Shown here piece by piece: positions 45,858 to 60,985 of a stretch of 64,000 nt of DNA (position 1 is the stretch's first letter; each line of letters begins with the position of its first letter). A program made the translations under genes and the position numbers. Origin of the DNA: Escherichia phage BF17; the sequence record MW822008.1. One strand, given 5' to 3'. The notes beneath the pieces were generated by a model, which saw nothing but the letters and a program-made list of their open reading frames with translations, was not told the origin of the DNA and did not search any database.

Positions 45858-45918
45858 TACTTGCAAACTAAGTTTAAAAGCGTATAATACTTTCTATCAG
45901 GTGGTGAATAGTTCCCCA
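45858..45918 (+). promoter_or_regulatory. early-type promoter with leader hairpin
   Basis: near-identical copy of 45542 unit. Confidence 0.6.
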
Positions 45919-45939
45919 CTATATAAGAGGATTAAAAAA

Positions 45940-46179
45940 ATGGCTAAATCAAAAATGTTCTTAGGTCACAAAAACAAAACTCATTGGAATGTAAGCCTTT
46001 GGATTAATAACGATGAGTCATTGTACCGGTTGGCCCAGGACTTTATTAATGATAGCACTAATCGCAATGATGCGGCCCGTCATATGATGCTATTTTTAGA
46101 ACAGACTGGACAAGATAAAACACCGGACGGATTCAAATATAGCACTACTGCGATCCGTGCGGCGATGGTTGGAATGTAA
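45940..46179 (+). CDS. hypothetical protein, paralog of 47980-48219
   Basis: trimmed to MAKSK; shares GHKNKT.WNVSLWINN and PDGFKYSTTAIRAAMVGM. Confidence 0.6.
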   Translation: MAKSKMFLGHKNKTHWNVSLWINNDESLYRLAQDFINDSTNRNDAARHMMLFLEQTGQDKTPDGFKYSTTAIRAAMVGM

Positions 46180-46265
46180 TAGAATTTATTTAAAGTACTA
46201 TCATTTTTTTGCGATAGTACTTTATAATAGTGTTTTATTCATACACCAACGATAAGGGTAACAGC

Positions 46266-46532
46266 ATGAATATTAAGTATTTTGCGACGCGTGAACAAGC
46301 TCGGATCGCCGCACGCCAGGACGGGGCAACGTTTAAAGATATGGGAGCGGGATCGGCAAGTGGTGAACGTTGGGCCATTGTAAAGCGTAGTACCGCCAGA
46401 TCATTACAGTACTGGTTAGCGGCGTTAAAAAGTCCCGATAGTGTATCGCGTCGAGTGGTAGAAATAAAGCTCGACCGAAAGGGCAACCGCGTGACCGTGT
46501 ACCGTACTAAAAAGATTGCAGTACTTGAATAA
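46266..46532 (+). CDS. hypothetical protein, paralog of 58638-59033
   Basis: trimmed to MNIKYFATREQARIAARQDG; shares DRKGNRVTVY. Confidence 0.6.
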   Translation: MNIKYFATREQARIAARQDGATFKDMGAGSASGERWAIVKRSTARSLQYWLAALKSPDSVSRRVVEIKLDRKGNRVTVYRTKKIAVLE

Positions 46533-46536
46533 AAAG

Positions 46537-46598
46537 TACTTGCAAACTATGTTTAATGGCGTATAATGTTTTACATCGAGAGCGGGAACACTTCCCGC
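46537..46598 (+). promoter_or_regulatory. early-type promoter with leader hairpin
   Basis: ACTTGCAAACTATG...TATAAT...GCGGGAACACTTCCCGC. Confidence 0.6.
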
Positions 46599-46619
46599 CT
46601 ATAACCTGGAGTAATAAAA

Positions 46620-46850
46620 ATGACTAATATGTATATGACTGAAGTTAAAACCGTAAAAGATACTACCACGAATAAAACTACTTACTTACAGCGGATCTGC
46701 GGTGTATGGCAACGTATCAGCAAATCAAAGTACTTTAAATTAACATCATATGCAAACCGTTCGGATTCATTCAGTACTGAAATAAAAGGTAATAAAGTAC
46801 ACCAATACGGCACTTATTATTATTATAGCCTGGACGCGATTGCAGTATAA
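46620..46850 (+). CDS. hypothetical protein
   Basis: 76-aa ORF, GGAG upstream. Confidence 0.55.
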   Translation: MTNMYMTEVKTVKDTTTNKTTYLQRICGVWQRISKSKYFKLTSYANRSDSFSTEIKGNKVHQYGTYYYYSLDAIAV

Positions 46851-47092
46851 GCAGTTTACAAATCTTTACAATTGCCGGTATTGACTTATTTTGTCAGTAC
46901 TGGCATAATGTATTCATTGGCAGATAAGCCGTAGCCCATAGGGTGCGGGAGTGTATCTATAGAAAAAGTAGTTTATTACAGTTACAATTGTGCACCCGGT
47001 GGGTTAGCTGTTGTCATGGGGTATATTATGCCAGTACTTGATAATGCTGTCAATACTTTTTTTACTATTCAGTACTGAAAACTATTTTTAAA

Positions 47093-47130
47093 AAGTACTT
47101 GCAAACTATGTTTAAAGGCGTATAATGTTT
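47093..47130 (+). promoter_or_regulatory. early-type promoter driving a non-coding leader
   Basis: ACTTGCAAACTATGTTTAAAGGCG TATAAT; no ORF before the next promoter. Confidence 0.55.
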
Positions 47131-47215
47131 TACATCAGGACGGGGAACGAAATAAGTAACTCCCCGTTAAGTAGCCCAGGAGTAAGGCACACGAAAAACT
47201 CCCCTGATAAAATAG
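47131..47215 (+). ncRNA. candidate small RNA / structured leader, copy 1
   Basis: ~85-nt conserved block CAGGACGGGGAACGAAA.AAGTAAC.CCCGTTAAGTAG.CCAGGAGTAAG...CCCCTGATAAAA; second copy at 57447-57525. Confidence 0.4.
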
Positions 47216-47262
47216 TTTGACAAATGTTTTTAAAAGCGTATAATACTTACATCAACTACTGA
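47216..47262 (+). promoter_or_regulatory. promoter upstream of 47277
   Basis: TTGACA ... TATAAT before GAGGG and ATG. Confidence 0.45.
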
Positions 47263-47276
47263 ATGAGGGTTACAAA

Positions 47277-47888
47277 ATGAAAACTATCACTACTACTACT
47301 TTCGTTATGGATTTTTCTGAATTGAACGCAGAACAAAAAACGTCAGCTATCGAACTGGTTCGGGAACGTGAAAAAAACTTAAACGATGATTATTTTTCTG
47401 AAAGTGAAATTGAATACTATAAAGAAACAGTACTACCGGAATATGGCATTAATGACGCTGATTTACGTTTCAGTGGCTTTTGGTCCCAGGGTGACGGTGC
47501 ATCAATCAGTACTGACCACGTTGACGCAGTGAAGTTTTTACGCAAGGTAAGAGCATTAACTAAGTATCGCTCAATCCGTCACTTGCTGAATGAAGATGAT
47601 TTGGCGATGAGTGTAAAGCGTTCTCACTCCCACTACTCGCATGAAAACACTGTAAGCGGGTACATTGAATCGGCTTACACTGATTTAACCGCAAAACAAG
47701 AAACGTTAGTTAATGAGCTTGAGGAACTACTCACTGAAACTATTCGTGAATTATCCCGCAAGTTGTACCGTGATTTAGAGAATGCATATGAGGATCAATT
47801 CACTACTGAAAACATTACGGCACTGATTGAGGGTAACGAATATCAATTCAATGTTATTGATGGCGTAGTAGAATCAATCGAATATTAA
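47277..47888 (+). CDS. hypothetical acidic protein
   Basis: 203-aa ORF. Confidence 0.65.
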   Translation: MKTITTTTFVMDFSELNAEQKTSAIELVREREKNLNDDYFSESEIEYYKETVLPEYGINDADLRFSGFWSQGDGASISTDHVDAVKFLRKVRALTKYRSIRHLLNEDDLAMSVKRSHSHYSHENTVSGYIESAYTDLTAKQETLVNELEELLTETIRELSRKLYRDLENAYEDQFTTENITALIEGNEYQFNVIDGVVESIEY

Positions 47889-47896
47889 TTTAAAAA

Positions 47897-47960
47897 AGTA
47901 CTTGCAAACTAAGTTTAAAAGCGTATAATACTTTATATCGAGGCGGGGAGTGGTTCCCCG
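47897..47960 (+). promoter_or_regulatory. early-type promoter with leader hairpin
   Basis: ACTTGCAAACTAAG...TATAAT; hairpin GCGGGGAGTGGTTCCCCGC. Confidence 0.6.
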
Positions 47961-47979
47961 CTCAAACGAGGATTTAAAA

Positions 47980-48219
47980 ATGGCTAGTTCTAAAACTTAC
48001 AACGGGCACAAAAACAAAACTCAATGGAATGTAAGCCTTTGGATTAATAACGGTGAGTCATTGTATCGGCTTGCACAAAGTTGTATCGCACAAAGTAGAA
48101 CTAAAGATATTGCAGCGGAATGTATGTACCGCAGATTAAAAGCCAACGGTACTACTACAACGCCGGACGGTTTTAAGTATAGCACTACTGCGATCCGTGC
48201 TGCAATGGTTGGAATGTAA
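47980..48219 (+). CDS. hypothetical protein, paralog of 45940-46179
   Basis: trimmed to MASSKTYNGHKNKTQWNVSLWINN. Confidence 0.6.
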   Translation: MASSKTYNGHKNKTQWNVSLWINNGESLYRLAQSCIAQSRTKDIAAECMYRRLKANGTTTTPDGFKYSTTAIRAAMVGM

Positions 48220-48276
48220 TATTCAGTACTGAGATAATGGCGGGTAATAGTTCCCGCCTTTACTGAGGGTTATCTA

Positions 48277-48537
48277 ATGAGTAAAGTAATAAAGTACAAT
48301 GTGTTAAGCAAATCATTGTCTATCAGTGAATGCACCGATGGTTTTTGGATGTACGATGAAACGCGTGGCATGAATTTAGCTATGCGTGCAAAAACTGCTG
48401 AGGCGGCGTATATTCAAGCACTGGAATACTACCAGGAACGTTTAAAGGAAGTAGAAGAAGATTATAAAAGCCTCAAAGCGAAAGTAGATCATTTCGTCGG
48501 TCAATTCATCGAGGAAGACGACGACAAACAATATTGA
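48277..48537 (+). CDS. hypothetical protein
   Basis: 86-aa ORF, GAGGG upstream. Confidence 0.55.
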   Translation: MSKVIKYNVLSKSLSISECTDGFWMYDETRGMNLAMRAKTAEAAYIQALEYYQERLKEVEEDYKSLKAKVDHFVGQFIEEDDDKQY

Positions 48538-48540
48538 AAA

Positions 48541-48606
48541 AGTACTTGCAATTAGTTTTCAGTACTGTATAATGGTTTACATCAAAGGGAGAAATGGTTC
48601 TCCCTG
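48541..48606 (+). promoter_or_regulatory. early-type promoter with leader hairpin
   Basis: ACTTGCAATTAG...TATAAT; hairpin GGGAGAAATGGTTCTCCC. Confidence 0.6.
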
Positions 48607-48623
48607 GTAATGAGGAAAATAAA

Positions 48624-48845
48624 ATGGCTAATATCACTACTCTTTCCCAACTGGAAGCACTGGTTAAATCTATGCGGGAACATGCCGACAAAATCGGCGT
48701 ACAAGATCCAGCCGTTTGCTTCTGCGACGAATTGAATGATGATACCCTGGTAATAGCAGAAGTCCAGGACGTTTCTAACTATTCATCGCGTTACACTGGC
48801 GGCGTAGCAAATAAAGGTGACTTCTGTTTATACCTTACAAAATAA
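48624..48845 (+). CDS. hypothetical protein
   Basis: trimmed to MANITTLSQ. Confidence 0.55.
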   Translation: MANITTLSQLEALVKSMREHADKIGVQDPAVCFCDELNDDTLVIAEVQDVSNYSSRYTGGVANKGDFCLYLTK

Positions 48846-49009
48846 CAACGCGGGGAGATAATAACTCCCCGTTACTTTTTCAGTACTGAATCATTTAATA
48901 GACGGATCTATGCACCCGGTGGGTTAGTGACTGTTTCGTCTTGATGTAGTAATTATGCCAGTACTGGATGCACTTGTCAACAACTATTTTTCAAATACTT
49001 TTTATTAAA

Positions 49010-49068
49010 ATACTTGCAATTAGTTTTTAAACGCGTATAATGTTTTGCATAGGGGGAGCGGTTCCCCT
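49010..49068 (+). promoter_or_regulatory. early-type promoter with leader hairpin
   Basis: ACTTGCAATTAG...TATAAT; hairpin GGGGGAGCGGTTCCCC. Confidence 0.6.
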
Positions 49069-49088
49069 GGTAACTAAGGAATAATAAA

Positions 49089-49325
49089 ATGCTTGAACAA
49101 ATCAAATCAACGTCTTCGAATGTAACGGGAACGGTAGCACACTTTACTAGTGATGAATCGCGGGGCGTTCCCTATTGTGCTGTACATGTAAACACTGAGG
49201 GTAACTACTGGTTTACGGTTTACGGATCATATTCATTTGGACGGCCAGGGCATCAAAAAATTCTGGATAAAGTACAACCAACGGGTAAAAATATCACTGC
49301 TGAAATGTTTTATAAAAAATCATAA
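49089..49325 (+). CDS. hypothetical protein
   Basis: 78-aa ORF. Confidence 0.55.
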   Translation: MLEQIKSTSSNVTGTVAHFTSDESRGVPYCAVHVNTEGNYWFTVYGSYSFGRPGHQKILDKVQPTGKNITAEMFYKKS

Positions 49326-49326
49326 A

Positions 49327-49390
49327 GTACTTGATAATAGTTTTTAGTACTGTATAATATTTTACATCGCAAGGGGGAGCGGTTCCCCCT
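49327..49390 (+). promoter_or_regulatory. early-type promoter with leader hairpin
   Basis: ACTTGATAATAG...TATAAT; hairpin GGGGGAGCGGTTCCCCC. Confidence 0.55.
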
Positions 49391-49409
49391 GGTAACTAAG
49401 GATAATCAA

Positions 49410-49709
49410 ATGAAAATTGCAATCATCGCCCTGGCTTTATCTGTTTCCTCTTTCGCTGTTAATGCGTCATTAGATGTAAGTAGTGAAAAATTCATTCAGT
49501 GCACTGTTGCAATGACCGATGAAAGTACTGGCGAGATTGTTTTAAAGGATTTAGAGATCCAGCCGGAAGCATTTAAAAACGGGCCGTTCCATGAAGAAGA
49601 CGAAAAAGGTAGCACGACAATTTATTACGATGCAAGTACTAAACGCGGTTCGGTCACTGTTATGGATACTGAGAAAGTAACTCATACTGGCGTTATTAAT
49701 TGCCGTTGA
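49410..49709 (+). CDS. small secreted protein
   Basis: 99 aa; signal-peptide-like MKIAIIALALSVSSFAVNA. Confidence 0.6.
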   Translation: MKIAIIALALSVSSFAVNASLDVSSEKFIQCTVAMTDESTGEIVLKDLEIQPEAFKNGPFHEEDEKGSTTIYYDASTKRGSVTVMDTEKVTHTGVINCR

Positions 49710-49730
49710 TATATACTACGGGGTAACATC

Positions 49731-49961
49731 ATGACTAAGCGAATTGTTTTACTTAACGAAAGCAGTACTACACAACTACTTAACGCCGTGCATTATGATA
49801 TTGAAACGAGCGTTAATCTTATCAGTACTGTAGTACTGTTGGACACTGGAAAGGTCGCCAATGATAAAGCGATTGCAGGTATACTAACGGATCTTGAGCC
49901 TGGTAGCAGTGCATCAATAACGTTAAATGGTAAAGTGTTTAACATTTTACTTACTGATTAA
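49731..49961 (+). CDS. hypothetical protein
   Basis: 76-aa ORF. Confidence 0.5.
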   Translation: MTKRIVLLNESSTTQLLNAVHYDIETSVNLISTVVLLDTGKVANDKAIAGILTDLEPGSSASITLNGKVFNILLTD

Positions 49962-49966
49962 GTACA

Positions 49967-49995
49967 TAGCCCACCTGGTGGGCTTTTTTGTTTTT
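49967..49995 (+). terminator. rho-independent terminator
   Basis: AGCCCACCTGGTGGGCT + TTTTTGTTTTTG. Confidence 0.65.
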
Positions 49996-50043
49996 GTAGT
50001 ATCGTAGTACTGAGATACTTTGAAAATAGTTTTAAAAAAGTAG

Positions 50044-50072
50044 TTGACATTACCGCAGAAAAGCGTAGAATG
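50044..50072 (+). promoter_or_regulatory. sigma70-like promoter with ~120-nt leader
   Basis: TTGACA, 16-17 nt, TAGAAT. Confidence 0.5.
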
Positions 50073-50194
50073 TATTACATCAAGACGGGGAGCACTAAGT
50101 AGACCGCCAGTAAGTCGAACGAAAAACTGGACACGTCGAGAAAACTTTGATACACTAATAAACGTAAACTAAACTTTAATTGAGGATTTATAAA

Positions 50195-50677
50195 ATGGCT
50201 AATGTAAAATCATTCATCAAAGCACTGGTAGCAAATGAAACTAACGTCGCGGCTGAGATCCTGGCTGAACTGGATAACGATACCATGAAAGCGGTACGCA
50301 ATAATTTTAACATCGCGTACAGTACTGCGAAAGAACTACAAGCAAATAAAGCGGCAGAAATTGAAGCGGCAAAGGCGGCCCGTGAAGCAGAACTACAAGC
50401 AACAATCGAAAGTATTCAGGCGGCAGTAGTTGGATTGGATCTGGAAGTAGTTACAGAGATGGCACAAAAAGCCCTGGCGGTTAAGTATGGGGAAGACAAG
50501 CCAGAAGTAAAAGCCAAAAAATGGATTCAGGAACGCGTAGCGGTAGTACTGGACAACGGGGAAGAATATCTGATTCCGGTGCGTGGTAACTGCATTGCGG
50601 TAGTACTGGACGCGATTAACTCCAGTGGTATGACTCGCGAGGAATGGATCGAAGCTCATCGCAAAGTTGAAGCATAA
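50195..50677 (+). CDS. hypothetical Ala/Glu-rich protein
   Basis: trimmed to MANVKSF after GAGGA; ~160 aa. Confidence 0.6.
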   Translation: MANVKSFIKALVANETNVAAEILAELDNDTMKAVRNNFNIAYSTAKELQANKAAEIEAAKAAREAELQATIESIQAAVVGLDLEVVTEMAQKALAVKYGEDKPEVKAKKWIQERVAVVLDNGEEYLIPVRGNCIAVVLDAINSSGMTREEWIEAHRKVEA

Positions 50678-50698
50678 CAATTAAAGTACTGAATCACT

Positions 50699-50730
50699 AG
50701 CCCACTTATACAGTGGGCTTTTTTGTGTTT
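50699..50730 (+). terminator. rho-independent terminator
   Basis: AGCCCACTTATACAGTGGGCT + TTTTTGTGTTT. Confidence 0.65.
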
Positions 50731-50875
50731 ATCGTTTACCAGGCCACCAGCACCGCCTAGAAACGATTCTAACGCATTAAACTGATTATCTGATGCATCA
50801 CCCTAGCTGGTGGCGTTAAGGTCGTTAGAATGCGATTGAGTGCGTTTAAAGTATTTTACAAAAAGTAATAAAAAG

Positions 50876-50940
50876 TACTTGCACGATTAAGAGATTAGCG
50901 TATAATGTTTTACATCGAGAGGGGGAAACGGTTCTCCTTC
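50876..50940 (+). promoter_or_regulatory. early-type promoter with leader hairpin
   Basis: ACTTGCACGATT...TATAAT; hairpin GGGGGAAACGGTTCTCC. Confidence 0.55.
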
Positions 50941-50961
50941 CAAATCAAAGGAATCAAAACA

Positions 50962-51189
50962 ATGGCTATTATCATTACTCGCGTATCTGGTACTACTGGC
51001 AACGAACAAGTAGTTGCAGTCATTACCAACAAGGAAGGTGCGGAATTGCAAAATGCAATGAATACCTGGGCCGTTAATGAGTTCGGTCAGTGGGCAAGTG
51101 TAGCATACATTGAAACCTATCAAGTGCCGTCGATTAGTTTAACTGATTTGGGCGTTGAGCGTATCCTTTGCCTTGATGAATTAAATTAA
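50962..51189 (+). CDS. hypothetical protein
   Basis: trimmed to MAIIITRVSG. Confidence 0.55.
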   Translation: MAIIITRVSGTTGNEQVVAVITNKEGAELQNAMNTWAVNEFGQWASVAYIETYQVPSISLTDLGVERILCLDELN

Positions 51190-51193
51190 AAAA

Positions 51194-51260
51194 GTACTTG
51201 CAAAGTAAATCGAATAAAGTATAATACATTACATCAAGGGGAGAAAATGGTTCTCCCCAC
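51194..51260 (+). promoter_or_regulatory. early-type promoter with leader hairpin
   Basis: ACTTGCAAAGTAAATCGAATAAAG TATAAT; hairpin GGGGAGAAAATGGTTCTCCCC. Confidence 0.55.
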
Positions 51261-51275
51261 TACAAGGAAACTAAA

Positions 51276-51419
51276 ATGAAAACTTGTCAATGTGGTCAGA
51301 AATCTATTACGGGTTTAAAGCGGGGCGTTGCTCTTTGCCAGTACCATTATAATTTACAAGTATGGGGTAAAGAATGGGCCGACCAGGTGGAAGCAGCAAA
51401 GAAAGCAAAAAGTAAGTAA
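51276..51419 (+). CDS. small Cys-containing protein
   Basis: 47-aa ORF below cutoff; MKTCQCGQ...CQYH. Confidence 0.4.
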   Translation: MKTCQCGQKSITGLKRGVALCQYHYNLQVWGKEWADQVEAAKKAKSK

Positions 51420-51438
51420 AAATATTATCACAGTACTA

Positions 51439-51467
51439 TTGACATAGTTTGATAGTACTGGCATAAT
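51439..51467 (+). promoter_or_regulatory. sigma70-like promoter (TTGACA class), in an ~80-bp repeat
   Basis: TTGACATAGTTTGATAGTACTGG CATAAT; block repeated at 51712-51790. Confidence 0.55.
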
Positions 51468-51498
51468 AGATTTTATCAAGACGACTAAGGAAAACAAA

Positions 51499-51711
51499 AT
51501 GGCTATCATTACAAAAATCAAAGTAAACAAATCACTGGTTAAACTTGAACAAGTGAAAGCAGGTTATAAAGTATCGTGGTGCGGTATGTATCGGATGTTC
51601 GCAGATATTGATGAAGCGATCAATTATTACAGCGACACGGTTAAAAACTTTGTTCGTGCTGATGTGGTTATGGCAGTGGCAGCACATAAAGCAGCGAAAG
51701 AAAGTAAGTAA
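51499..51711 (+). CDS. hypothetical protein
   Basis: 70 aa; MAIITKIKV; N-terminal similarity to 54613-54792. Confidence 0.55.
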   Translation: MAIITKIKVNKSLVKLEQVKAGYKVSWCGMYRMFADIDEAINYYSDTVKNFVRADVVMAVAAHKAAKESK

Positions 51712-51730
51712 AAATATTATCACAGTACTA

Positions 51731-51759
51731 TTGACATAGTTTGATAGTACTGGCATAAT
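51731..51759 (+). promoter_or_regulatory. sigma70-like promoter (TTGACA class), repeat copy
   Basis: same sequence as 51439-51467. Confidence 0.55.
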
Positions 51760-51800
51760 AGATTTTATCAAGACAACATATTAATTTAAGGAATACAAAA

Positions 51801-52124
51801 ATGGCTAAAACTATCATTAACACCGTTTCCCTGGCTGCAATCCGTGCAATCAATGTTGACGGTAAACGTTGGACTGATTCATATGGCAATACTTATCATT
51901 CTTGTCATGTAAGCGTTGAACTGGATAACGGTTTGAATGATCTGGCGGTTGAATCATTTACTTATGGCTATGAAGATGCATATCAACAAACGGCGTTAGA
52001 TCTCTTAAAGGAATCAGTAGACGGGCTTAATACTGATGAAACCTCCCTTACTCGTTTGTGCAATGATCTTAATATCCCGTTGCATTGTACTGTACAGAAT
52101 GTTAAACGCAAAAAAGATCTTTAA
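51801..52124 (+). CDS. hypothetical protein, paralog of 58219-58542
   Basis: 107 aa; shared RWTDS.GNTYHSC.VS and FTYGY, ending VKRKKD. Confidence 0.6.
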   Translation: MAKTIINTVSLAAIRAINVDGKRWTDSYGNTYHSCHVSVELDNGLNDLAVESFTYGYEDAYQQTALDLLKESVDGLNTDETSLTRLCNDLNIPLHCTVQNVKRKKDL

Positions 52125-52204
52125 TTAGCTTTACTTTATGCAGATACTTTGATATAGTGTCTGCATAGGGGAAAGAAATTAAATTAACTTAAGAGGATCG
52201 TATA

Positions 52205-52474
52205 ATGAAAAATATCAGTACTTTAATCGATGCAGGTACACATGTTCGGCGGTCTATGGTTGCAACCAGTACTACAAAACAAGTAGCGAGCGGTTATCTT
52301 GTATTTGTGCACGATGGTAAACTCCTGGAACGTTCAATCAATTTTGATGTTAAAAACAATTGCCGTTTTATTATCTTTAAGCGTGAACAATATAAAATTG
52401 ATTTACCAGCGAAGCCCATAAGCGGGGCGTACAACGTGCAATCATTGTTTGAGCGTCAACCTTACACCTATTAA
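52205..52474 (+). CDS. hypothetical protein
   Basis: 89-aa ORF, GAGGA upstream. Confidence 0.55.
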   Translation: MKNISTLIDAGTHVRRSMVATSTTKQVASGYLVFVHDGKLLERSINFDVKNNCRFIIFKREQYKIDLPAKPISGAYNVQSLFERQPYTY

Positions 52475-52525
52475 TCAAAACATCGTTAGCGGTCGTTTAA
52501 GGCCGCTTATATTGGGGATTATACC

Positions 52526-52798
52526 ATGAACGTTAATCAAGTACTGAATGAGATCGAAAGCATCATTAAACCGATGAAGCGTACTGATGCTATGTTAACA
52601 CCGGAAGAAAGCCGCCTATATGAGCGTTACAGCGTCGAACAAGTCCAGGCAATGGCTATGGCTACGCCAGCCGTTAAACCGCCTGAGAATGCGTTACAGG
52701 ACGTTACAGGGGATTATATCATTAATCCAGTACTAGGGAAGATGCCGCCAATCACCGAAGAACAAAAAGACTATTTGAGTCAGTACTTAAAAGGTTAA
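52526..52798 (+). CDS. hypothetical protein
   Basis: 90-aa ORF. Confidence 0.55.
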   Translation: MNVNQVLNEIESIIKPMKRTDAMLTPEESRLYERYSVEQVQAMAMATPAVKPPENALQDVTGDYIINPVLGKMPPITEEQKDYLSQYLKG

Positions 52799-52803
52799 TT
52801 AAT

Positions 52804-53013
52804 ATGCTTACTGTACAGGATAAGATCGACATCTTAAAGGTTAATATGTATGTGATTGATGCCGTACCTGGTAAAGTATTTGCATACGATGATTCTAATC
52901 GCAGTCCTTTCTATTGTAGTCATGTAGTTGGATACGTGCCGTTGGCGTATGTTATCGAAAGAGTGGTTGATGCAGCATACAATCATTTTTTAGAAAATAA
53001 TACTTGCAATTAG
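52804..53013 (+). CDS. hypothetical protein
   Basis: 69-aa ORF. Confidence 0.5.
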   Translation: MLTVQDKIDILKVNMYVIDAVPGKVFAYDDSNRSPFYCSHVVGYVPLAYVIERVVDAAYNHFLENNTCN

Positions 53014-53065
53014 TTTTTAAACGCGTATAATGTTTTACATGAAGGGGAGAAATGATTCTCCCCAC
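53002..53065 (+). promoter_or_regulatory. early-type promoter with leader hairpin
   Basis: ACTTGCAATTAG...TATAAT; hairpin GGGGAGAAATGATTCTCCCC. Confidence 0.55.
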
Positions 53066-53082
53066 TAATTAAGGAATATGAA

Positions 53083-53229
53083 ATGAAAGCATCAAAAAAG
53101 AGTAATACCAAGAAAGCATGTTCACCTTTCGCTGGGGTATTCCCTTTACGTTTCGTTGATGAAGTGGTTTCCTACCCGCTGGGCCTTACTCCTGAGATGG
53201 TAGAAAGTTTGCGTAAATCTAAAAAATAA
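53083..53229 (+). CDS. small basic protein
   Basis: 48-aa ORF below cutoff. Confidence 0.4.
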   Translation: MKASKKSNTKKACSPFAGVFPLRFVDEVVSYPLGLTPEMVESLRKSKK

Positions 53230-53230
53230 T

Positions 53231-53292
53231 ACTTGCAATTAGTTTTCAGTACTGTATAATAGTTTACATGAAGGGGAGAAATGATTCTCCCC
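53231..53292 (+). promoter_or_regulatory. early-type promoter with leader hairpin
   Basis: near-duplicate of 53002 unit. Confidence 0.55.
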
Positions 53293-53310
53293 AATAACAG
53301 GAGAAACAAA

Positions 53311-53463
53311 ATGAAACAATACAACGCTCGGTTTGATGTTACTATCGGCAACGGCAAAGGTCAATTCTCTTTCAGTACTCGCCGCAGTTATACAGAAAAC
53401 TTCCTGCGAAATTGTGCACTGACCGCCGCACAAATTAAACATTACTTCCAGGCTAAAAAATGA
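53311..53463 (+). CDS. small protein
   Basis: trimmed to MKQYNARF; 50 aa. Confidence 0.45.
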   Translation: MKQYNARFDVTIGNGKGQFSFSTRRSYTENFLRNCALTAAQIKHYFQAKK

Positions 53464-53679
53464 AATCATTAGCTTATTACAGTTCGGCGGTGATCGGTGC
53501 ATTGATCGCGGCATTGTTAGTAACCTATCTATTCTTTATGGTGATTTAAATGAATCCTAACGGTTTAATTTACAGTACTACTAAAACGAAAGCAGATAAA
53601 GCGAAAGTAAAGGAGTACATTAAGCAAGGCATGACGCGAAAGGCGGCAGTACTGAAAGCTAAAAAATAAATGAAAAAAG

Positions 53680-53699
53680 TGGTTGACTTCGGTCAGCCA
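53680..53699 (+). terminator. hairpin terminator with embedded TTGACT
   Basis: TGGTTGACTTCGGTCAGCCA. Confidence 0.5.
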
Positions 53700-53800
53700 T
53701 TTTGCTATTATATATTCATTGAGAGATAGCTCACTAGCCCACCGGGTGCATAAGTGTATCTATTATATAAGTATTGAGTACTGAGAACTATTTTTAAAAA

Positions 53801-53866
53801 GTACTTGCAAACTATCTCAATTGGCGTATAATGTTTTACATCGAGAGGGGGAACGGTTTCCCCTGG
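53801..53866 (+). promoter_or_regulatory. early-type promoter with leader hairpin
   Basis: ACTTGCAAACTATCTCAATTGGCG TATAAT; hairpin GGGGGAACGGTTTCCCC. Confidence 0.6.
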
Positions 53867-53883
53867 TAATAAGGAAACGAATC

Positions 53884-54225
53884 ATGACTATCTCAATTGC
53901 TCAATCTAACTTTGAAAATGAAATCATCGCCCAGGCACTGCGTTTAAATGATGGTCGGGCCGAAATTAATTACGGTTTCAATTCAGGCGGTTGTGAAAAC
54001 TATCAGTACTTTGTAACTGCTGATGGCGGTGTCCTGGGCATCAATACCGTTATTGTAAACATTCAGAAAATTAATTTCAATGATCCAGACGATAGCCAGT
54101 TTTACATTGTAGGCGTAGACGTGAACTATGAGGATGACTCACTAACTGATGATCACACTGGCGAGAAGTTAGAAAGTGCATACGGTGAAGATGATTATCA
54201 GTCCGGTCCAGAAGATTTTGAATAA
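53884..54225 (+). CDS. hypothetical acidic protein
   Basis: trimmed to MTISIAQSNFE; 113 aa. Confidence 0.6.
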   Translation: MTISIAQSNFENEIIAQALRLNDGRAEINYGFNSGGCENYQYFVTADGGVLGINTVIVNIQKINFNDPDDSQFYIVGVDVNYEDDSLTDDHTGEKLESAYGEDDYQSGPEDFE

Positions 54226-54238
54226 TATTAAAAAATAG

Positions 54239-54300
54239 TTTGACAATAGATTATAGTACTGTATAATAAGTTACATCAAGGGGAGAATAGTTCTCCCCAC
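54239..54300 (+). promoter_or_regulatory. sigma70-like promoter with leader hairpin
   Basis: TTGACA-17-TATAAT; hairpin GGGGAGAATAGTTCTCCCC. Confidence 0.6.
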
Positions 54301-54316
54301 TAACAGAGAAAACAAA

Positions 54317-54529
54317 ATGGCTAATATCTGCACTGTACTGAAAAATGCAAAACAAGTTTTATTTTCTGACCACGATTATTTTAATAAAGATATTACAGGC
54401 GTTCGGAATATCAAAGATGTAAAAAGTGTTATGGGTATCTATTGCAATATGAAACGTGTTGGAACGTTCGGCGACAAAGTACTATACCAGGCAGGGGATT
54501 ACAATTTTACACTGACTATCATTAACTAA
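54317..54529 (+). CDS. hypothetical protein
   Basis: 70-aa ORF. Confidence 0.55.
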   Translation: MANICTVLKNAKQVLFSDHDYFNKDITGVRNIKDVKSVMGIYCNMKRVGTFGDKVLYQAGDYNFTLTIIN

Positions 54530-54548
54530 AAATATTATCACAGTACTA

Positions 54549-54578
54549 TTGACATAGTTTGATAGTACTGACATAATA
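54549..54578 (+). promoter_or_regulatory. sigma70-like promoter (TTGACA class), repeat copy
   Basis: third copy of the 51421 block with -10 variant ACATAAT. Confidence 0.5.
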
Positions 54579-54612
54579 ACTTTTATCAACTACACTACTA
54601 AGGAATTAAAAA

Positions 54613-54792
54613 ATGGCTATCATCGCAAAAACTGAAATCGTTGGTCTGGATTCTATCATCATGACGTTTGAAGATCAAAAAGGTATGTATGTAGTTTCAT
54701 ATGGTGATTATGTTCGGGAGTATGAAACGGTAGACGAAGCCTTTGAAAGTTATATTCGCCAGGTGAATAAAGCATACGACGACTACCGCTAA
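54613..54792 (+). CDS. small protein
   Basis: 59-aa ORF below cutoff; MAIIAKTEIVGL. Confidence 0.45.
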   Translation: MAIIAKTEIVGLDSIIMTFEDQKGMYVVSYGDYVREYETVDEAFESYIRQVNKAYDDYR

Positions 54793-54819
54793 AATATATT
54801 ACCAGTACTATTAAAGTTA

Positions 54820-54848
54820 TTGACATAGTTTGATAGTACTGTATAATA
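54820..54848 (+). promoter_or_regulatory. sigma70-like promoter (TTGACA class)
   Basis: TTGACATAGTTTGATAGTACTG TATAAT. Confidence 0.5.
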
Positions 54849-54891
54849 AGTTTTATAAACAGTAGTTAACTTAACCTAAGAGAGAAATAAA

Positions 54892-55035
54892 ATGATCGCA
54901 CTGGATTCATTCATCGACGCAGTACTGGCAAAAACTGGCGAGGATCTGACCGCAGAACAATACGCGATGATCGAGCAATGTCAGCAAAACGGTAAATCGG
55001 TGAAAGATACTGTTAAGATTATCCGCAAGATGTAA
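54892..55035 (+). CDS. small protein
   Basis: 47-aa ORF below cutoff; followed by terminator-like inverted repeat. Confidence 0.4.
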   Translation: MIALDSFIDAVLAKTGEDLTAEQYAMIEQCQQNGKSVKDTVKIIRKM

Positions 55036-55134
55036 GATTATAGCCCACTGGTTAACGCTGGTGGGCTTTAATCCTTTACCCTATACAATGTCAGTACTAA
55101 ACCGTTTATCTCATTAGAATGCGTTACAGGACGT

Positions 55135-55338
55135 TTGACAATGATTAGCATGAAATCAGTACAAAAACAAATAGAAACATTATCAAAAATTAAACGTAAA
55201 CAGTACTCGTTAGAATATACAATCAATGGTAACTATCATCTAATGAAAGAGAATAATTTTATCGTCATTGATGAATCATTGCAAGTTATTAGTATAGTAC
55301 TGAAAGCATTAATTAATGATAGAAAAAAATTAAAATAA
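55135..55338 (+). CDS. hypothetical protein
   Basis: 67-aa ORF. Confidence 0.45.
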   Translation: MTMISMKSVQKQIETLSKIKRKQYSLEYTINGNYHLMKENNFIVIDESLQVISIVLKALINDRKKLK

Positions 55339-55669
55339 TCTATTGACAATATCCTCCAGTACTGGCATAATACTTACATCAAGACGAGAACGTCACTAAC
55401 CCATAGGGTGCACAAATGTAACTGTATAATATTGATCAAAAAATGATCTGATCAATACTTGATCAATTTGCGTAAAGTAGTATAATTCTATGCAGTTGGT
55501 TAGACGAAAGGTTATGATTAGTAGTGCAAGTGTATAAAAATTTTCATGGTGTATCGTTCCGCACATATGGCAATGAATATGTGGTATCATGTGGATTGGA
55601 AAAAGTAAGAACAAGTAATATTATTGTCGCATTACAGTACTATAGTATTTTTATAATGAGGTTAAAATA

Positions 55670-55927
55670 ATGGCTGTAGGATTCGCGAAAGATGGGGCCG
55701 AACAAGACGAGATTAACGCAGTGATTCAGGCCGCCGTTAACCACGCTAGAAAGCAAATTAACGCACAAATAGAATCACTGATACATTGCCTCGACTGCGG
55801 CGATATAATCCCTGAGAAACGACGCCAGGCCGTTAAGGGATGTAAGTACTGCATAACTTGCCAGGAGGATCATGATAGTACTTTTAAACGTCCCCCGCGT
55901 AATTGTTGGCATAGATCTATGAGATAA
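55670..55927 (+). CDS. TraR/DksA-family C4 zinc-finger protein
   Basis: 85 aa; C-x2-C...C-x2-C in HCLDCGDIIPEKRRQAVKGCKYCITCQE. Confidence 0.65.
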   Translation: MAVGFAKDGAEQDEINAVIQAAVNHARKQINAQIESLIHCLDCGDIIPEKRRQAVKGCKYCITCQEDHDSTFKRPPRNCWHRSMR

Positions 55928-55933
55928 AAAGTA

Positions 55934-55990
55934 TTGACAGTACTATCCAGTAGTGTTATAGTACTTACATCAAGGGGAAACATCTTCCCC
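55934..55990 (+). promoter_or_regulatory. sigma70-like promoter with leader hairpin
   Basis: TTGACAGTACTATCCAGTAGTG TTATAGT; hairpin GGGGAAACATCTTCCCC. Confidence 0.5.
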
Positions 55991-56002
55991 TACTAAGAGG
56001 AA

Positions 56003-56197
56003 ATGAAAATGGAAAACTTATCAAGTATTTTAGTACAAGATGATTTCGGTAATCCTGGAAGTGCTATCATTGTTCGGGGTAATAAAGCAACATTTGTTAT
56101 TGCTGGTGGACCTGTACAGCGTAGCATTAAAAACAATGCCGTTACTATTAATAATGTACGCTATCGCTTAGATAAAGAATTGATTCATAAACTGTAA
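56003..56197 (+). CDS. hypothetical protein
   Basis: 64-aa ORF (alternative start 56009). Confidence 0.5.
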   Translation: MKMENLSSILVQDDFGNPGSAIIVRGNKATFVIAGGPVQRSIKNNAVTINNVRYRLDKELIHKL

Positions 56198-56224
56198 TAT
56201 TAATTTAATAGAGGATAACAATAA

Positions 56225-56548
56225 ATGTACATTCATACTACTATCACAAAGGAAGTCCGTTGCCAGTTCGAAAGTATTCCGGGCGTATGTTTCATCACTG
56301 GTACGTTTTCCCCTGGTGATCGTGATAATCCAGTACTGTTACAATTACGCCATCCATCATGGGATAAAGCATTTGATCTACCGTTGAATGAATTCGCAAC
56401 TACTGCTGAAAAGTACATTAAAAATATTCGCGAGAATGATCGACTATTCATTAATGCTTTCAGTGATTCCGCGTTAAGCGAGATCCACAGCGTATTGGTT
56501 GCAATCATGGAATCAATGGAGAAAACTAAATTCAAACAAGGTGAATAA
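56225..56548 (+). CDS. hypothetical protein
   Basis: 107-aa ORF, GAGGA upstream. Confidence 0.55.
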   Translation: MYIHTTITKEVRCQFESIPGVCFITGTFSPGDRDNPVLLQLRHPSWDKAFDLPLNEFATTAEKYIKNIRENDRLFINAFSDSALSEIHSVLVAIMESMEKTKFKQGE

Positions 56549-56553
56549 AAACT

Positions 56554-56616
56554 ATTGACAAGATAATCTAGTACTGTATAATAAGTTACATGAAGGGGAG
56601 AAATGATTCTCCCCAC
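56554..56616 (+). promoter_or_regulatory. sigma70-like promoter with leader hairpin
   Basis: TTGACA-17-TATAAT; hairpin GGGGAGAAATGATTCTCCCC. Confidence 0.6.
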
Positions 56617-56631
56617 TGAGAGGAAAGAAAA

Positions 56632-56844
56632 ATGCAAGGTCAACTAATCGTTCGTAAATGGTCTGATACTAACGCTAAACCGTGGGATGTACAATACATC
56701 GGACCGGATGGGGTATCACGTTATCAGCCTGGCGTAACGCATAGTACTGAGCAATATGCCGCCGCTCACCGCGAACGCCTGTTAGAATCCATGAAACAGG
56801 GATACGGTGAAAAATTCATTCAAGATCATTGGCTGAAAGATTAA
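56632..56844 (+). CDS. hypothetical protein
   Basis: 70-aa ORF. Confidence 0.55.
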   Translation: MQGQLIVRKWSDTNAKPWDVQYIGPDGVSRYQPGVTHSTEQYAAAHRERLLESMKQGYGEKFIQDHWLKD

Positions 56845-56861
56845 TATAAGGAGTACAGCTT

Positions 56862-56954
56862 ATGCAAATGAATCCGATGATTATTGTGTTAGCTGTACTT
56901 ATGATCATTCATGCAATAGTAAAAGTATTAACGCAATCAGGAGTAATAAAATGA
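56862..56954 (+). CDS. small hydrophobic peptide
   Basis: 30-aa ORF; AAGGAG upstream; single TM-like helix. Confidence 0.35.
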   Translation: MQMNPMIIVLAVLMIIHAIVKVLTQSGVIK

Positions 56955-57124
56955 TTCAAGTAGAATTATCAGTACTGAAAGATCTGTTTTATCGGTTAGG
57001 TACTACTGGCGAGTATCCTAAAAGTGATACCGCAAAACTTTTTGTATCACTCGACTTATGGCAACGCGAACAATTAGTAATGTCCTGGCGTAAAGGTAAA
57101 GCAGATAGCGAGGTGAAAGCATGA
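56951..57124 (+). CDS. small protein
   Basis: 57-aa ORF overlapping upstream stop (ATGA). Confidence 0.35.
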   Translation: MIQVELSVLKDLFYRLGTTGEYPKSDTAKLFVSLDLWQREQLVMSWRKGKADSEVKA

Positions 57125-57270
57125 AAGAATTCTTATTCGAAGTAGTGTTTCAAGGTGTCGGTAGTAACCAACTGATTCGCTCAAGTGGTTATAATGTTAA
57201 CCAGGCATGGAATAACATTAAACAAATGTACCCGAACGCTATCACCTATCGCAACCCGAAAGAAGTTTAA
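57121..57270 (+). CDS. small protein
   Basis: 49-aa ORF overlapping upstream stop. Confidence 0.35.
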   Translation: MKEFLFEVVFQGVGSNQLIRSSGYNVNQAWNNIKQMYPNAITYRNPKEV

Positions 57271-57284
57271 AAATATTTGAAAAA

Positions 57285-57306
57285 GGGATTGACTCCGGTC
57301 AGTCCC
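57285..57306 (+). terminator. hairpin terminator with embedded TTGACT
   Basis: GGGATTGACTCCGGTCAGTCCC. Confidence 0.55.
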
Positions 57307-57414
57307 TTTGCTATTATATACGCATAGAAACAAATCAGCCCACAGGGTGCATAAATGTATCTATTGTTTGCTGGTGGCTAGTACTGAAAACTATTTTTAA
57401 AAAAGTACTTGCAT

Positions 57415-57446
57415 TGTACTTAGAATCAAGTATAATGTTTTACATC
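57415..57446 (+). promoter_or_regulatory. early-type promoter driving the second candidate small-RNA copy
   Basis: ACTTGCATTGTACTTAGAATCAAG TATAAT. Confidence 0.55.
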
Positions 57447-57525
57447 AGGACGGGGAACGAAACAAGTAACCCCGTTAAGTAGTCCAGGAGTAAGACATAA
57501 GAAAACCTCCCCTGATAAAATAGTT
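57447..57525 (+). ncRNA. candidate small RNA / structured leader, copy 2
   Basis: near-identical to 47131-47215; again between an upstream promoter and a downstream TTGACA...TATAAT. Confidence 0.4.
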
Positions 57526-57585
57526 TGACAATAGAAAGTAAACGAGTATAATACTTACATCAACCACTGATAAGGAAACATTAAA

Positions 57586-57861
57586 ATGCGGATTCTACTG
57601 ACAGCTAACGAAATCGAACAAGTACTGACTACTAACCTGGAAGACTGGAAACGTGAAGCAGATATCCAGGCGGTTCAACTGCTTAACGATAAGTTAACGC
57701 CGGATGACTTAAGCAAGATTGTAGATCCTCAATTCTACGAAGATATCCACGACACCGCGTTAAGCGTCGAGGATGTACTAGATAAGCACTACATTGATAT
57801 TGATTTGCAGGTTTACGGTCGTAAAAACTTTATCACTATTCACGACATTTATAATAATTAA
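57586..57861 (+). CDS. hypothetical protein
   Basis: 91-aa ORF. Confidence 0.55.
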   Translation: MRILLTANEIEQVLTTNLEDWKREADIQAVQLLNDKLTPDDLSKIVDPQFYEDIHDTALSVEDVLDKHYIDIDLQVYGRKNFITIHDIYNN

Positions 57862-57863
57862 GT

Positions 57864-57925
57864 ATTGACAAAGTATCTTAGTACTGTATAATAGTTTACA
57901 TCGAGAGGGGGAATGGTTCCCCTCC
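57864..57925 (+). promoter_or_regulatory. sigma70-like promoter with leader hairpin
   Basis: TTGACAAAGTATCTTAGTACTG TATAAT; hairpin GGGGGAATGGTTCCCCTCC. Confidence 0.6.
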
Positions 57926-57947
57926 TAACAAAGAGAGAGAAATAAAA

Positions 57948-58130
57948 ATGGCTAAATGCACTATCTGCAAGAAAGAAATAGTATTAGTTCCAAGTGCCCG
58001 TGAACGTGCCGCTCGGTTCGGTGGCAAAGCGTCAGACTATACAAAAATGTTTACTACCCATGCAGCTTGCCAGGTAGCAAAACGTTCACAAGAAAGCGTA
58101 GAATTAATGCGTAAACTTTCCAAAAAATAA
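57948..58130 (+). CDS. small Cys-containing protein
   Basis: 60 aa; C-x2-C at N-terminus. Confidence 0.5.
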   Translation: MAKCTICKKEIVLVPSARERAARFGGKASDYTKMFTTHAACQVAKRSQESVELMRKLSKK

Positions 58131-58133
58131 GTA

Positions 58134-58196
58134 TTGACAAAGTATCTTAGTACTGTATAATAGTTTACATCAAGTGAGGGGAAACGGTTCCCCTCC
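58134..58196 (+). promoter_or_regulatory. sigma70-like promoter with leader hairpin
   Basis: near-duplicate of 57864 unit. Confidence 0.6.
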
Positions 58197-58218
58197 TAAC
58201 AAAGAGAGAGAAATAAAA

Positions 58219-58542
58219 ATGGCTATGATCCTTGCCCAGAAAGTAGAACTGAAAATTGTAACCTCCTTTGACATTAAAGTTAATCGGTGGACTGATTCAC
58301 ACGGCAATACTTACCACTCTTGCTACGTGTCCGCGTTAATTGGCGACCGCTGGGAAGACTTGGGACATGAAACCTTTACTTACGGTTACGGTACACAAGG
58401 AGAATACACGGGCTTGGAGATCATTAAAGAAACCGTTATAGGTTTCAACCCGAAAGAAAAAGTTATTCACCGCATCGAAAAAGAGATTAACAAAGAAATA
58501 ACAGTTCGCTACTACGATGTAAAACGTAAGAAAGACATGTAA
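58219..58542 (+). CDS. hypothetical protein, paralog of 51801-52124
   Basis: trimmed to MAMILAQ. Confidence 0.6.
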   Translation: MAMILAQKVELKIVTSFDIKVNRWTDSHGNTYHSCYVSALIGDRWEDLGHETFTYGYGTQGEYTGLEIIKETVIGFNPKEKVIHRIEKEINKEITVRYYDVKRKKDM

Positions 58543-58637
58543 TAGAATCCATTTAAAGTACTATTTGACATTGCCCAGATAGTACTTTATAATAGACTCT
58601 AACTTGTAGTACTAACTCAACTAATAGGATGTATACC

Positions 58638-59033
58638 ATGATTACTAAATTCTACGCTACCCGTGAAGCTGCCCGTATTGTTGCACGCGAGGAAGGAGCA
58701 GCATTTAAAGACATGGGCAAAGATGCACCGAAAGGTCAACGCTGGGCCGTACAGTTCAAAGAAATCTCTGATATTGTGAATTCACCTGAGCCAGTACTAA
58801 CAGCAGCAGAACTAAAACGAGCGGATTTACTGGCGGCAGTACTTAACGCACAAGATGAATTTATCGCTGATTCTGATATCAAAGTACAGACAAACCATAC
58901 CGCTTGGACTCACGCGGATCACCTGGCAAACCTTAAGCGTCCAAGTGAACTGGTTCGCAACCAGAAAGAGATCCGACACGACCGTAAGGGTAATCGTGTA
59001 ACAGTATACAGTAAACGCCGCCAGGTTATCTAA
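58638..59033 (+). CDS. hypothetical protein, paralog of 46266-46532
   Basis: trimmed to MITKFYATREAARIVAREEG. Confidence 0.6.
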   Translation: MITKFYATREAARIVAREEGAAFKDMGKDAPKGQRWAVQFKEISDIVNSPEPVLTAAELKRADLLAAVLNAQDEFIADSDIKVQTNHTAWTHADHLANLKRPSELVRNQKEIRHDRKGNRVTVYSKRRQVI

Positions 59034-59054
59034 TAACTTGCAGTACTAACAACA

Positions 59055-59088
59055 CGGCGGGATCAGTTCCCGCCTTTTTTATAGGATA
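59055..59088 (+). terminator. rho-independent terminator
   Basis: GGCGGGATCAGTTCCCGCC + TTTTTT. Confidence 0.65.
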
Positions 59089-59095
59089 AACTAAA

Positions 59096-59350
59096 ATGAT
59101 TAAGGTACAACTATCTAAAGATAATATCTTGCGGGTACACTATAAAGCACCACAGAGAATCATCACAAAGGCCGTACAGCTTGCTAATGAGTTTATTAAT
59201 GGTAACCTATTACCAAGGAAGTTAAGCAACGGAAAACTGCGTGTAATCGATGTAGACACTAACAACAGAATAGTAATTGAGAACACAGGAAAGATAAACC
59301 TATATGAACACCAACAATATAATAAGAAAATAAAACTAATATCACGTTGA
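59096..59350 (+). CDS. hypothetical protein
   Basis: 84-aa ORF. Confidence 0.5.
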   Translation: MIKVQLSKDNILRVHYKAPQRIITKAVQLANEFINGNLLPRKLSNGKLRVIDVDTNNRIVIENTGKINLYEHQQYNKKIKLISR

Positions 59351-60983: not shown

Positions 60984-60985
60984 GT

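Follow-up and report, generated by a model that had tools for sequence, protein, structure and literature searches.

Phage genomes evolve in a modular and mosaic fashion, and their 'morons', small accessory genes that are independently transcribed, are gained and lost as units and give rise to mosaic relationships between unrelated phages. In the T4-type phages RB49/phi1, PST and nt-1, promoter-early stem-loop (PeSL) cassettes combine an AT-rich stretch and a sigma-70 promoter with a GGGG..CCCC stem-loop, which takes one of five positions, and with a Shine-Dalgarno (SD) sequence and an ATG, and recombination between them leads to insertions and deletions (indels) of ORFans and to mini-circles (PMC2839356, PMC4122927). 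Among the RaK2-like jumbo phages, vB_PcaM_CBB carries promoters with an UP element and sigma-70-like (RpoD-like) motifs before short hypothetical open reading frames (ORFs), partly within its ~22-kb terminal repeat, and 22 of its ORFs were recorded as paralogs (PMC5259590). The stretch analyzed here, hereafter the window, is 64,000 nucleotides (nt) of Escherichia phage BF17 (MW822008.1), one strand of which ends in a block of small, probably early genes. An initial annotation had read five diverged paralog pairs in this block (A to E; Table 1) and concluded that it had grown by local duplication with promoter capture. Our comparisons make it likely that the block was instead assembled by modular, PeSL-like shuffling of single-gene cassettes and by exchange with phages of other subfamilies, and not by copying in place.

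By sequence identity to the nearest records, the window derives from an Asteriusvirus jumbo coliphage of the 121Q/PBECO4/vB_Ec-M-J type, and an 8-kb core of the studied region was 95–96% identical to vB_Ec-M-J, Turkey3, 121Q and PBECO4 (Asteriusvirus). Positions 1659–10578 of vB_Ec-M-J matched the block at 95% identity and fall within the direct terminal repeat (DTR) of 21,525 bp that is annotated in this phage, position 1 of that record corresponding to about position 44242 of the window. In the relative fEgEco12, a DTR of ~21 kb was established experimentally by restriction digests (PMC13070987). The region from 44.2 to 64 kb is therefore taken as the terminal-repeat block; gene orientation and GC skew both change at ~44 kb of the window. 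A role in early host takeover is suggested solely by the sigma-70 promoters together with the location of the block in the terminal repeat.

The block was dense in promoters. With a score counted as matches out of 12 and a threshold of at least 10/12, it held 35 promoters on the + strand in 20 kb, nine of them perfect (12/12), and a hairpin of -10 kcal/mol or stronger followed within 42 nt downstream in 19 of the 35, compared with one of the 30 promoters that reached the same threshold in the other 44 kb of the window. Some 45 near-consensus sigma-70 promoters stand ahead of the block's genes, and a hairpin follows roughly half of them. Direct-repeat analysis revealed intergenic repeats of 40–90 nt, in families of 9–19 copies, laid out as an A-rich stretch, AGTACTTGCAA or GTATTGACA, a spacer of 16–17 nt, (TG)TATAAT and TTTACATC, followed in about half by a GGGGAGAA..TTCTCCCC-type hairpin (-10 to -16 kcal/mol) and then by the SD sequence and ATG. 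Hairpin stems included GGGGAGAA/TTCTCCCC, GCGGG/CCCGC and similar sequences. In an alignment of 22 cassettes the A-rich UP region, -35, -10, TTTACATC, hairpin and SD elements were conserved. Each promoter lies in the gap that separates the stop codon of a small ORF from the SD/ATG of the following one, and the promoters recur every ~300–800 bp in direct orientation across the block. A second promoter class, devoid of a hairpin, precedes D1, C1, D2, E1 and E2. Hairpins were called from folds of the individual sequences; RNAalifold on a MAFFT alignment of the 22 cassettes recovered the hairpin only in part, because the stem registers vary among copies. Most early promoters also have an AGTACT palindrome ahead of their -35 and -10 elements.

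These units resemble PeSL cassettes in their AT-rich region with an upstream stop codon, their consensus sigma-70 promoter, the GGGG..CCCC stem-loop, and the SD sequence and ATG of a small ORFan, as well as in their dense repetition within a plastic region and in the position of indel and replacement junctions of close relatives inside the cassettes. The stem-loop downstream of -10 corresponds to one of the five PeSL subclasses. They differ in that Asteriusvirus, a RaK2-like jumbo phage, stands outside the T4-type myoviruses in which PeSL was defined, and in that the setting of the block is a long direct terminal repeat instead of T4 hyperplastic regions. About half of the Asteriusvirus cassettes are without a hairpin, and the hairpins have no T-run (U-tract in the transcript) and are not canonical intrinsic terminators. 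Furthermore, closely related cassette ORFs are shared with Stephanstirmvirinae and Vequintavirinae. Promoter and terminator activity and mini-circles were demonstrated for PeSL in RB49/phi1, while the Asteriusvirus cassettes are known from sequence alone. The jumbo phage vB_PcaM_CBB belongs to a related group and likewise has a promoter-rich early region with paralogous ORFs, but its description lists promoters and paralogs and does not extend to cassette indels, flanking repeats, cross-subfamily sharing or the present families. Compared with the moron model, the junctions here fall in conserved, repeated regulatory sequence, consistent with homology-driven joining, and not at random illegitimate sites, and the units are early genes of a lytic phage and not of a prophage. 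A literature search found no paper on the present families or on cassettes in Asteriusvirus. The mode of phage genome evolution described here is already known; the phage group in which it is seen is new.

Comparison with close relatives revealed sites at which a single cassette was present in one genome and missing in another. The initial annotation had placed two paralogous promoter-plus-gene units at 59347 and 59623. Both positions are TTGACA -35 hexamers and not gene starts, and TTG 'starts' at 59347 and 59623 are to be treated as such in annotation; the real ATGs, at 59404 and 59680, agree with the vB_Ec-M-J annotation. The part of the claim that stood is a repeat of ~93 nt that covers the promoter and 5' untranslated region (UTR; 76% identity), whereas the two proteins, taken from their true ATGs, were unrelated (Smith-Waterman [SW] z = -0.1), and an apparent identity of 63% over 30 'codons' arose from promoter and 5' UTR read as protein. 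PBECO4 and ten further Asteriusvirus genomes (12 records) lack exactly 276 bp, comprising E1, and in PBECO4 one hybrid promoter leads directly into E2. On this evidence the E 'pair' is best described as a promoter duplication flanking one inserted or deletable cassette.

The same picture was obtained at D1. In slurp01 (Asteriusvirus), the same upstream 144-nt gene and C1 are separated by one promoter copy, and D1 is absent. The repeat that flanks D1 in the window continues with reduced identity into the final ~11 codons of D1 and of the upstream gene, and the additional C-terminal tail of D1 relative to D2 therefore appears to be derived from the flanking repeat. The end of D1 (51680–51711, ..AVAAHKAAKESK before the stop) resembles the end of the upstream 47-amino-acid (aa) gene (51388–51419, ..VEAAKKAKSK before the stop). 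Together, D1 compared with slurp01 and E1 compared with PBECO4 show gain or loss of whole single-gene cassettes through recombination of the promoter repeats on either side. Replacement was seen at the A2 slot, where the alignment between the window and 121Q stops at the promoter and restarts at the next hairpin; in 121Q the slot is filled by gene 272, a homologue of the window gene at 49089. Thus, the indel or replacement junctions at D1 (slurp01), E1 (PBECO4 and the ten genomes) and the A2 slot (121Q) all fall within cassettes. The gene at 56225–56548 (107 aa; region 56197–56547) has no counterpart at this position in 121Q and vB_Ec-M-J, which carry a GNAT acetyltransferase gene instead, and this region is a further cassette replacement.

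ORFs were present at the coordinates of all the genes that had been paired, and an all-against-all comparison of 50 early-block proteins (1225 pairs) placed pairs A, B and C far above every other pair. These three are firm paralogs: pair A was 67% identical over 79 aa (E 4.5e-36, SW z = 56), pair B 34% over 128 aligned columns (E 5e-19, z = 27) with both members matching phrog_8127, and pair C 39% over 107 aa (E 1e-28, z = 40) with both members matching phrog_6246. The two members of pair A scored 45.0 and 50.5 bits against Pfam DUF7249, above its gathering cut-off of 27, and matched phrog_871 with E-values of 1e-29 and 2e-28; no Pfam match was found for the B, C, D or E proteins. The partners of a pair lie 2–12 kb apart and are 32–67% identical, and no pair is tandem or adjacent. 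Several matches of antisense or 5'-extended ORFs in the window were rejected as artefacts of promoter repeats.

For pair D (32% identity), the pairwise scores were unsettled. No BLAST match was obtained; the SW score of 54 (z ~6) ranked fourth among the 1225 pairs and was reached by none of 5000 shuffles, but an unrelated-looking pair in the early block had z = 5.9, so that by pairwise score pair D is near background. D1 and D2 fall in different PHROGs (phrog_35559 and phrog_9374), with weak reciprocal cross-matches (0.05–0.07). Profile comparisons were significant: hhalign of the two family profiles gave 85% probability and an E-value of 6.6e-6 over 48 columns, and with the hidden Markov model (HMM) of each family the other gene ranked first after the self-match when the 275 ORFs of the window were searched (E 3.6e-5 and 2.3e-4, the next-best matches being at 0.027 and 0.27). 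In addition, D1 is followed by C1 in the window, as a D2 homologue is followed by a C homologue in Phapecoctavirus tuntematon. D1 and D2 are thus probable remote paralogs. The ORF at 55524–55670, considered as a third member of the D family for its YVVSCG motif, received no support from the family HMMs. Of the five pairs that had been proposed, three are therefore firm, D is probable, and E is a promoter/5' UTR repeat only.

A tblastn search for families A to D against 50,697 phage records revealed that families A, C and D occur in Stephanstirmvirinae and Vequintavirinae, mostly as an adjacent D-C-A group, while family B is restricted to RaK2-like jumbo phages. The A1 protein was 92% identical to that of gp040 of Phapecoctavirus tuntematon (86% in nt) and 84% identical to that of AlexBoehm (Vequintavirus), and A2 was 91% identical in aa and 88% in nt to gene A71_232 of A7_1 (Vequintavirinae). 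Neighbor-joining (NJ) analysis clustered A1 with the Phapecoctavirus and Vequintavirus genes and A2 with the A7_1 gene, each with 100% bootstrap and in separate clades, and the A7_1 genome itself has both A types. Similarly, D1 was 84% identical to an A7_1 gene, and D2 was 75–78% identical to genes of tuntematon, AlexBoehm and Paula (Paula 78%) and 45% identical to RaK2 ORF336; D1 and D2 fell in separate clades with 98–100% bootstrap, each mixed with genes of other subfamilies, and A7_1 has two D types. Because A1, A2, D1 and D2 are closer to genes of other subfamilies, the copies are not each other's closest relatives. A1/A2 and D1/D2 would accordingly be diverged alleles from a gene pool circulating across phage subfamilies.

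The homology between subfamilies is almost exactly bounded by ORFs, and gene order is scrambled; a stretch of 8 kb in A7_1 contains counterparts of at least nine window genes, at 72–88% nt identity but in a different order. A1 and A2 are mosaic relative to each other: codons 1–32 and 61–79 are 83–89% identical in nt, with synonymous sites conserved too, compared with only 42% for codons 33–60, and a third type of A-family center was found in phage ukendt. The promoter ahead of the A2-type ORF has a hairpin in the window but belongs to the hairpin-less class in A7_1, and the flanks of A1 and A2, like those of D1 and D2, have only a promoter class in common, which is used by other genes as well. 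Presence also varies among Asteriusvirus isolates. 121Q, A4, CRJP21 and EC.P1 lack A2, no more than 20 Asteriusvirus-type records were found to contain D1, and the C1-type gene (at least 90% identity) occurred in only 26 records. Promoter and hairpin units occur at about 2 per kb in the early regions of Phapecoctavirus, Justusliebigvirus, A7_1 and RaK2.

Pairs B and C showed a different history. About 60 nt upstream of B1 and B2 are homologous and private to these two genes, which were mutual best matches among the 50 upstream regions, although the -35 element of the B1 promoter has decayed or been lost. All Asteriusvirus records examined carried both genes, whereas RaK2 has a single one, ORF353, which is 41% identical to B2; in the NJ tree B2 grouped weakly with ORF353 (71% bootstrap) and not with B1, the three forming lineages joined by deep branches. 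Given the shared upstream sequence, an old promoter-plus-gene duplication within the RaK2-like jumbo lineage is plausible for pair B. C1 is 37–40% identical to homologues in Stephanstirmvirinae and Vequintavirinae, and C1, C2 and the outgroup homologues likewise formed three lineages with deep branches between them; C1 and C2 have different promoter classes and no shared flanks, and an old duplication in the RaK2-like jumbo lineage is possible. Membership of the C family was considered for RaK2 ORF352, the ORF preceding the B homologue, and rejected.

When the 100 nt ahead of each of 50 genes were compared, the most similar upstream regions adjoined each other and preceded unrelated genes: 57948/58219 (score 82), 51499/51801 (76) and 45624/45940 (69). 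This adjacency effect was reached by none of 10,000 permutations of gene order. Promoter similarity, as measured here, is a function of position and not of gene family, which is the trace expected from insertion and deletion of cassettes by recombination between promoter copies. The array unit consists of an AT-rich UP region, a near-consensus sigma-70 promoter, in about half of the units a GGGG..CCCC hairpin with which the transcript is predicted to begin, a ribosome-binding site and one small ORF. Since the promoters recur in the block and similar cassettes are found in other large coliphages, they would offer recombination a portable stretch of homology. The sites described above show that exactly one cassette is inserted or deleted when two promoter copies recombine, and that isolates differ by the replacement of whole cassettes; beyond this, cassettes would be exchanged with co-infecting Stephanstirmvirinae and Vequintavirinae phages. 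The supposed paralog pairs would then be members of four small early-protein families, brought together and scattered by cassette traffic.

This scenario was weighed against duplication in place, as the initial annotation had it, with a promoter gained or kept and the copies diverging within this lineage. Such an origin would account for the homology upstream of B1 and B2 and for the presence of both in every Asteriusvirus record examined beside a single copy in RaK2, and it agrees with C1 and C2 being mutual nearest relatives by a small margin (39% versus 33–40% to outgroups) and with the same promoter class being found for A1/A2 and for D1/D2. Nevertheless, there are no tandem pairs, A1, A2, D1 and D2 cluster with genes of other subfamilies (98–100% bootstrap), the presence of A2, D1 and C1 varies from one close relative to the next, the promoter classes of C1 and C2 differ, B2 goes weakly with RaK2 rather than with B1, and the E 'units' have only the promoter in common. 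In-place duplication is already contradicted for A, D and E, and for the block as a whole we regard it as unlikely. The early block does hold diverged gene families, as had been claimed, but duplication of promoter plus gene is plausible for B and possible for C, and growth by local duplication was not borne out in general, given the lack of a tandem pair, the closer relatives elsewhere and the variable presence. Instead of the capture of promoters as originally worded, the data are better described by cassettes recombining within shared promoter sequences. A much older duplication, in the common ancestor of Asteriusvirus, Stephanstirmvirinae and Vequintavirinae, followed by vertical inheritance and differential loss, would explain why A7_1 has two members each of families A and D and why the D-C-A order recurs in Stephanstirmvirinae. 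It would not explain why nt identity of 86–88% is limited to single ORFs, between different subfamilies with genomes of 145–150 kb and ~350 kb, with flanks that do not align, nor the variation in presence and absence within one genus and the scrambled gene order between groups; we consider it very improbable. That the similarities reflect chance between short, biased ORFs, or promoter repeats read as protein, is true for pair E and for the several antisense or 5'-extended matches, and by pairwise score alone pair D is inseparable from background. As a general explanation it is scarcely credible, in view of the E-values of 1e-19 to 1e-36, z-scores of 27–57 and shared PHROG/Pfam families of pairs A, B and C, and of the profile-profile comparison and reciprocal HMM searches behind pair D.

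Several points weigh against cassette shuffling with inter-subfamily exchange, which we nevertheless favor. The NJ trees with bootstrap were built from proteins of only 59–107 aa and 12–15 taxa. Families A and D could have duplicated in an ancestor of Asteriusvirus, with export to other phages afterwards, the empty sites could result from deletion alone, and the similarity of neighboring promoters could stem from gene conversion, while B1/B2 and C1/C2 are equally compatible with plain, ancient duplication within the lineage. We deduce promoter activity, the early timing of expression, the function of the hairpins and the recombination intermediates from the sequence.

Table 1. Features of the early small-gene block in the window of phage BF17.
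Feature	Position	Strand	Remarks
Small-gene block in ~21-kb direct terminal repeat	44242..64000	+	~50 short genes, mostly with own promoter
A1, 79 aa, DUF7249 / phrog_871	45940..46179	+	67% to A2
Intergenic region upstream of B1	46180..46265	+	Homologous to B2 upstream; shared TAATAGAATnnATTTAAAGTACTAT...GATAGTACTTTATAATAG
B1, 88 aa, phrog_8127	46266..46532	+	34% to B2
A2 cassette: promoter, hairpin, gene	47890..48240	+	Unrelated cassette in its place in 121Q
A2, 79 aa, DUF7249 / phrog_871	47980..48219	+	Paralog of A1
Left promoter repeat of D1 cassette	51409..51485	+	99% over 77 nt to 51701-51777
D1, 70 aa, phrog_35559	51499..51711	+	C-terminal tail overlaps flanking repeat
Right promoter repeat of D1 cassette	51701..51777	+	Predicted to drive C1; 292 bp spacing from left copy
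C1, 107 aa, phrog_6246	51801..52124	+	Hairpin-less promoter class; 39% to C2
D2, 59 aa, phrog_9374	54613..54792	+	Probable remote paralog of D1
C2, 107 aa, phrog_6246	58219..58542	+	Promoter-plus-hairpin class; 39% to C1
Intergenic region upstream of B2	58543..58637	+	Perfect TTGACA-17-TATAAT promoter
B2, 131 aa, phrog_8127	58638..59033	+	~45-aa central insert; paralog of B1
Left promoter/5' UTR repeat of E	59315..59407	+	76% to 59591-59683, 276 bp spacing; -35 hexamer at 59347
E1 gene, 72 aa, single-gene cassette	59404..59622	+	Unrelated to E2
Right promoter/5' UTR repeat of E	59591..59683	+	Contains -35 hexamer at 59623; predicted to drive E2
E2 gene, 80 aa	59680..59922	+	Start matches vB_Ec-M-J annotation

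Besides the cassettes, a non-coding element was found in five copies in the window (46855–46970, 53663–53773, 57269–57361, 60537–60647 and 62504–62609), always in larger intergenic gaps and immediately ahead of a normal early promoter. It comprises a 12-bp hairpin with a TTGACT -35 in the loop, a TATTAT -10, ~25 variable nt and an invariant CCCACAGGGTGC-N5-TGTATC, and copies at ~7194–7329, 8610–8717, 15196–15296 and 17086–17217 of RaK2 were 72–83% identical to those of the window. The element had no Rfam match and its consensus fold was weak; it could represent either a small RNA or a regulatory site. Rfam and tRNA scans across the full 64 kb gave no matches. At the left physical end of the terminal repeat, ~12 copies of the 8-bp unit CTAGACGG occupy 44226–44324, coinciding with position 1 of vB_Ec-M-J (~44242), and this array may belong to the terminus or packaging signal. 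It lies within 1.2 kb without convincing genes (43900–45080), between divergent gene blocks and rich in the CAGTACTGA motif.

Elsewhere in the block, the 70-aa gene at 54317–54529 is 90% identical in aa and 86.5% in nt to a tuntematon gene named 'phosphoribosylpyrophosphate synthetase', a name that is implausible at this length and is probably a propagated misannotation. Outside the block, the - strand holds ~15 tandem paralogs of ~370–405 aa at 18796–38020 (22–47% identity), with 15–20 highly conserved N-terminal residues, an array far larger than any gene pair of the early block. At 38348–43107, ~20 tandem paralogs of ~60–80 aa (23–59% identity) follow each other head to tail on the + strand with almost no intergenic space. 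Unlike the dispersed pairs of the early block, this second array represents genuine local tandem duplication.

A broader proposal, about which we are more doubtful than convinced, is that cassettes of promoter with or without hairpin are a recombination 'currency' of at least three coliphage lineages (Asteriusvirus jumbo phages, Stephanstirmvirinae and Vequintavirinae), in which a pool of early host-takeover genes would circulate as single-gene units, possibly as mini-circles, and two diverged alleles would provide two target specificities. A1 and A2, with almost identical ends and an unalignable center (codons 33–60), would be an example. Irrespective of this proposal, the block provides unusually clean natural pairs of occupied and empty sites for the gain and loss of single-gene cassettes at repeated early promoters outside the T4-type phages. 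For phage therapy genomics, it is of relevance that close Asteriusvirus isolates differ in the early block. These results indicate that jumbo and ~150-kb coliphages draw on one early-gene pool, and that in-genome 'paralogs' of phage accessory regions need not stem from in-genome duplication.

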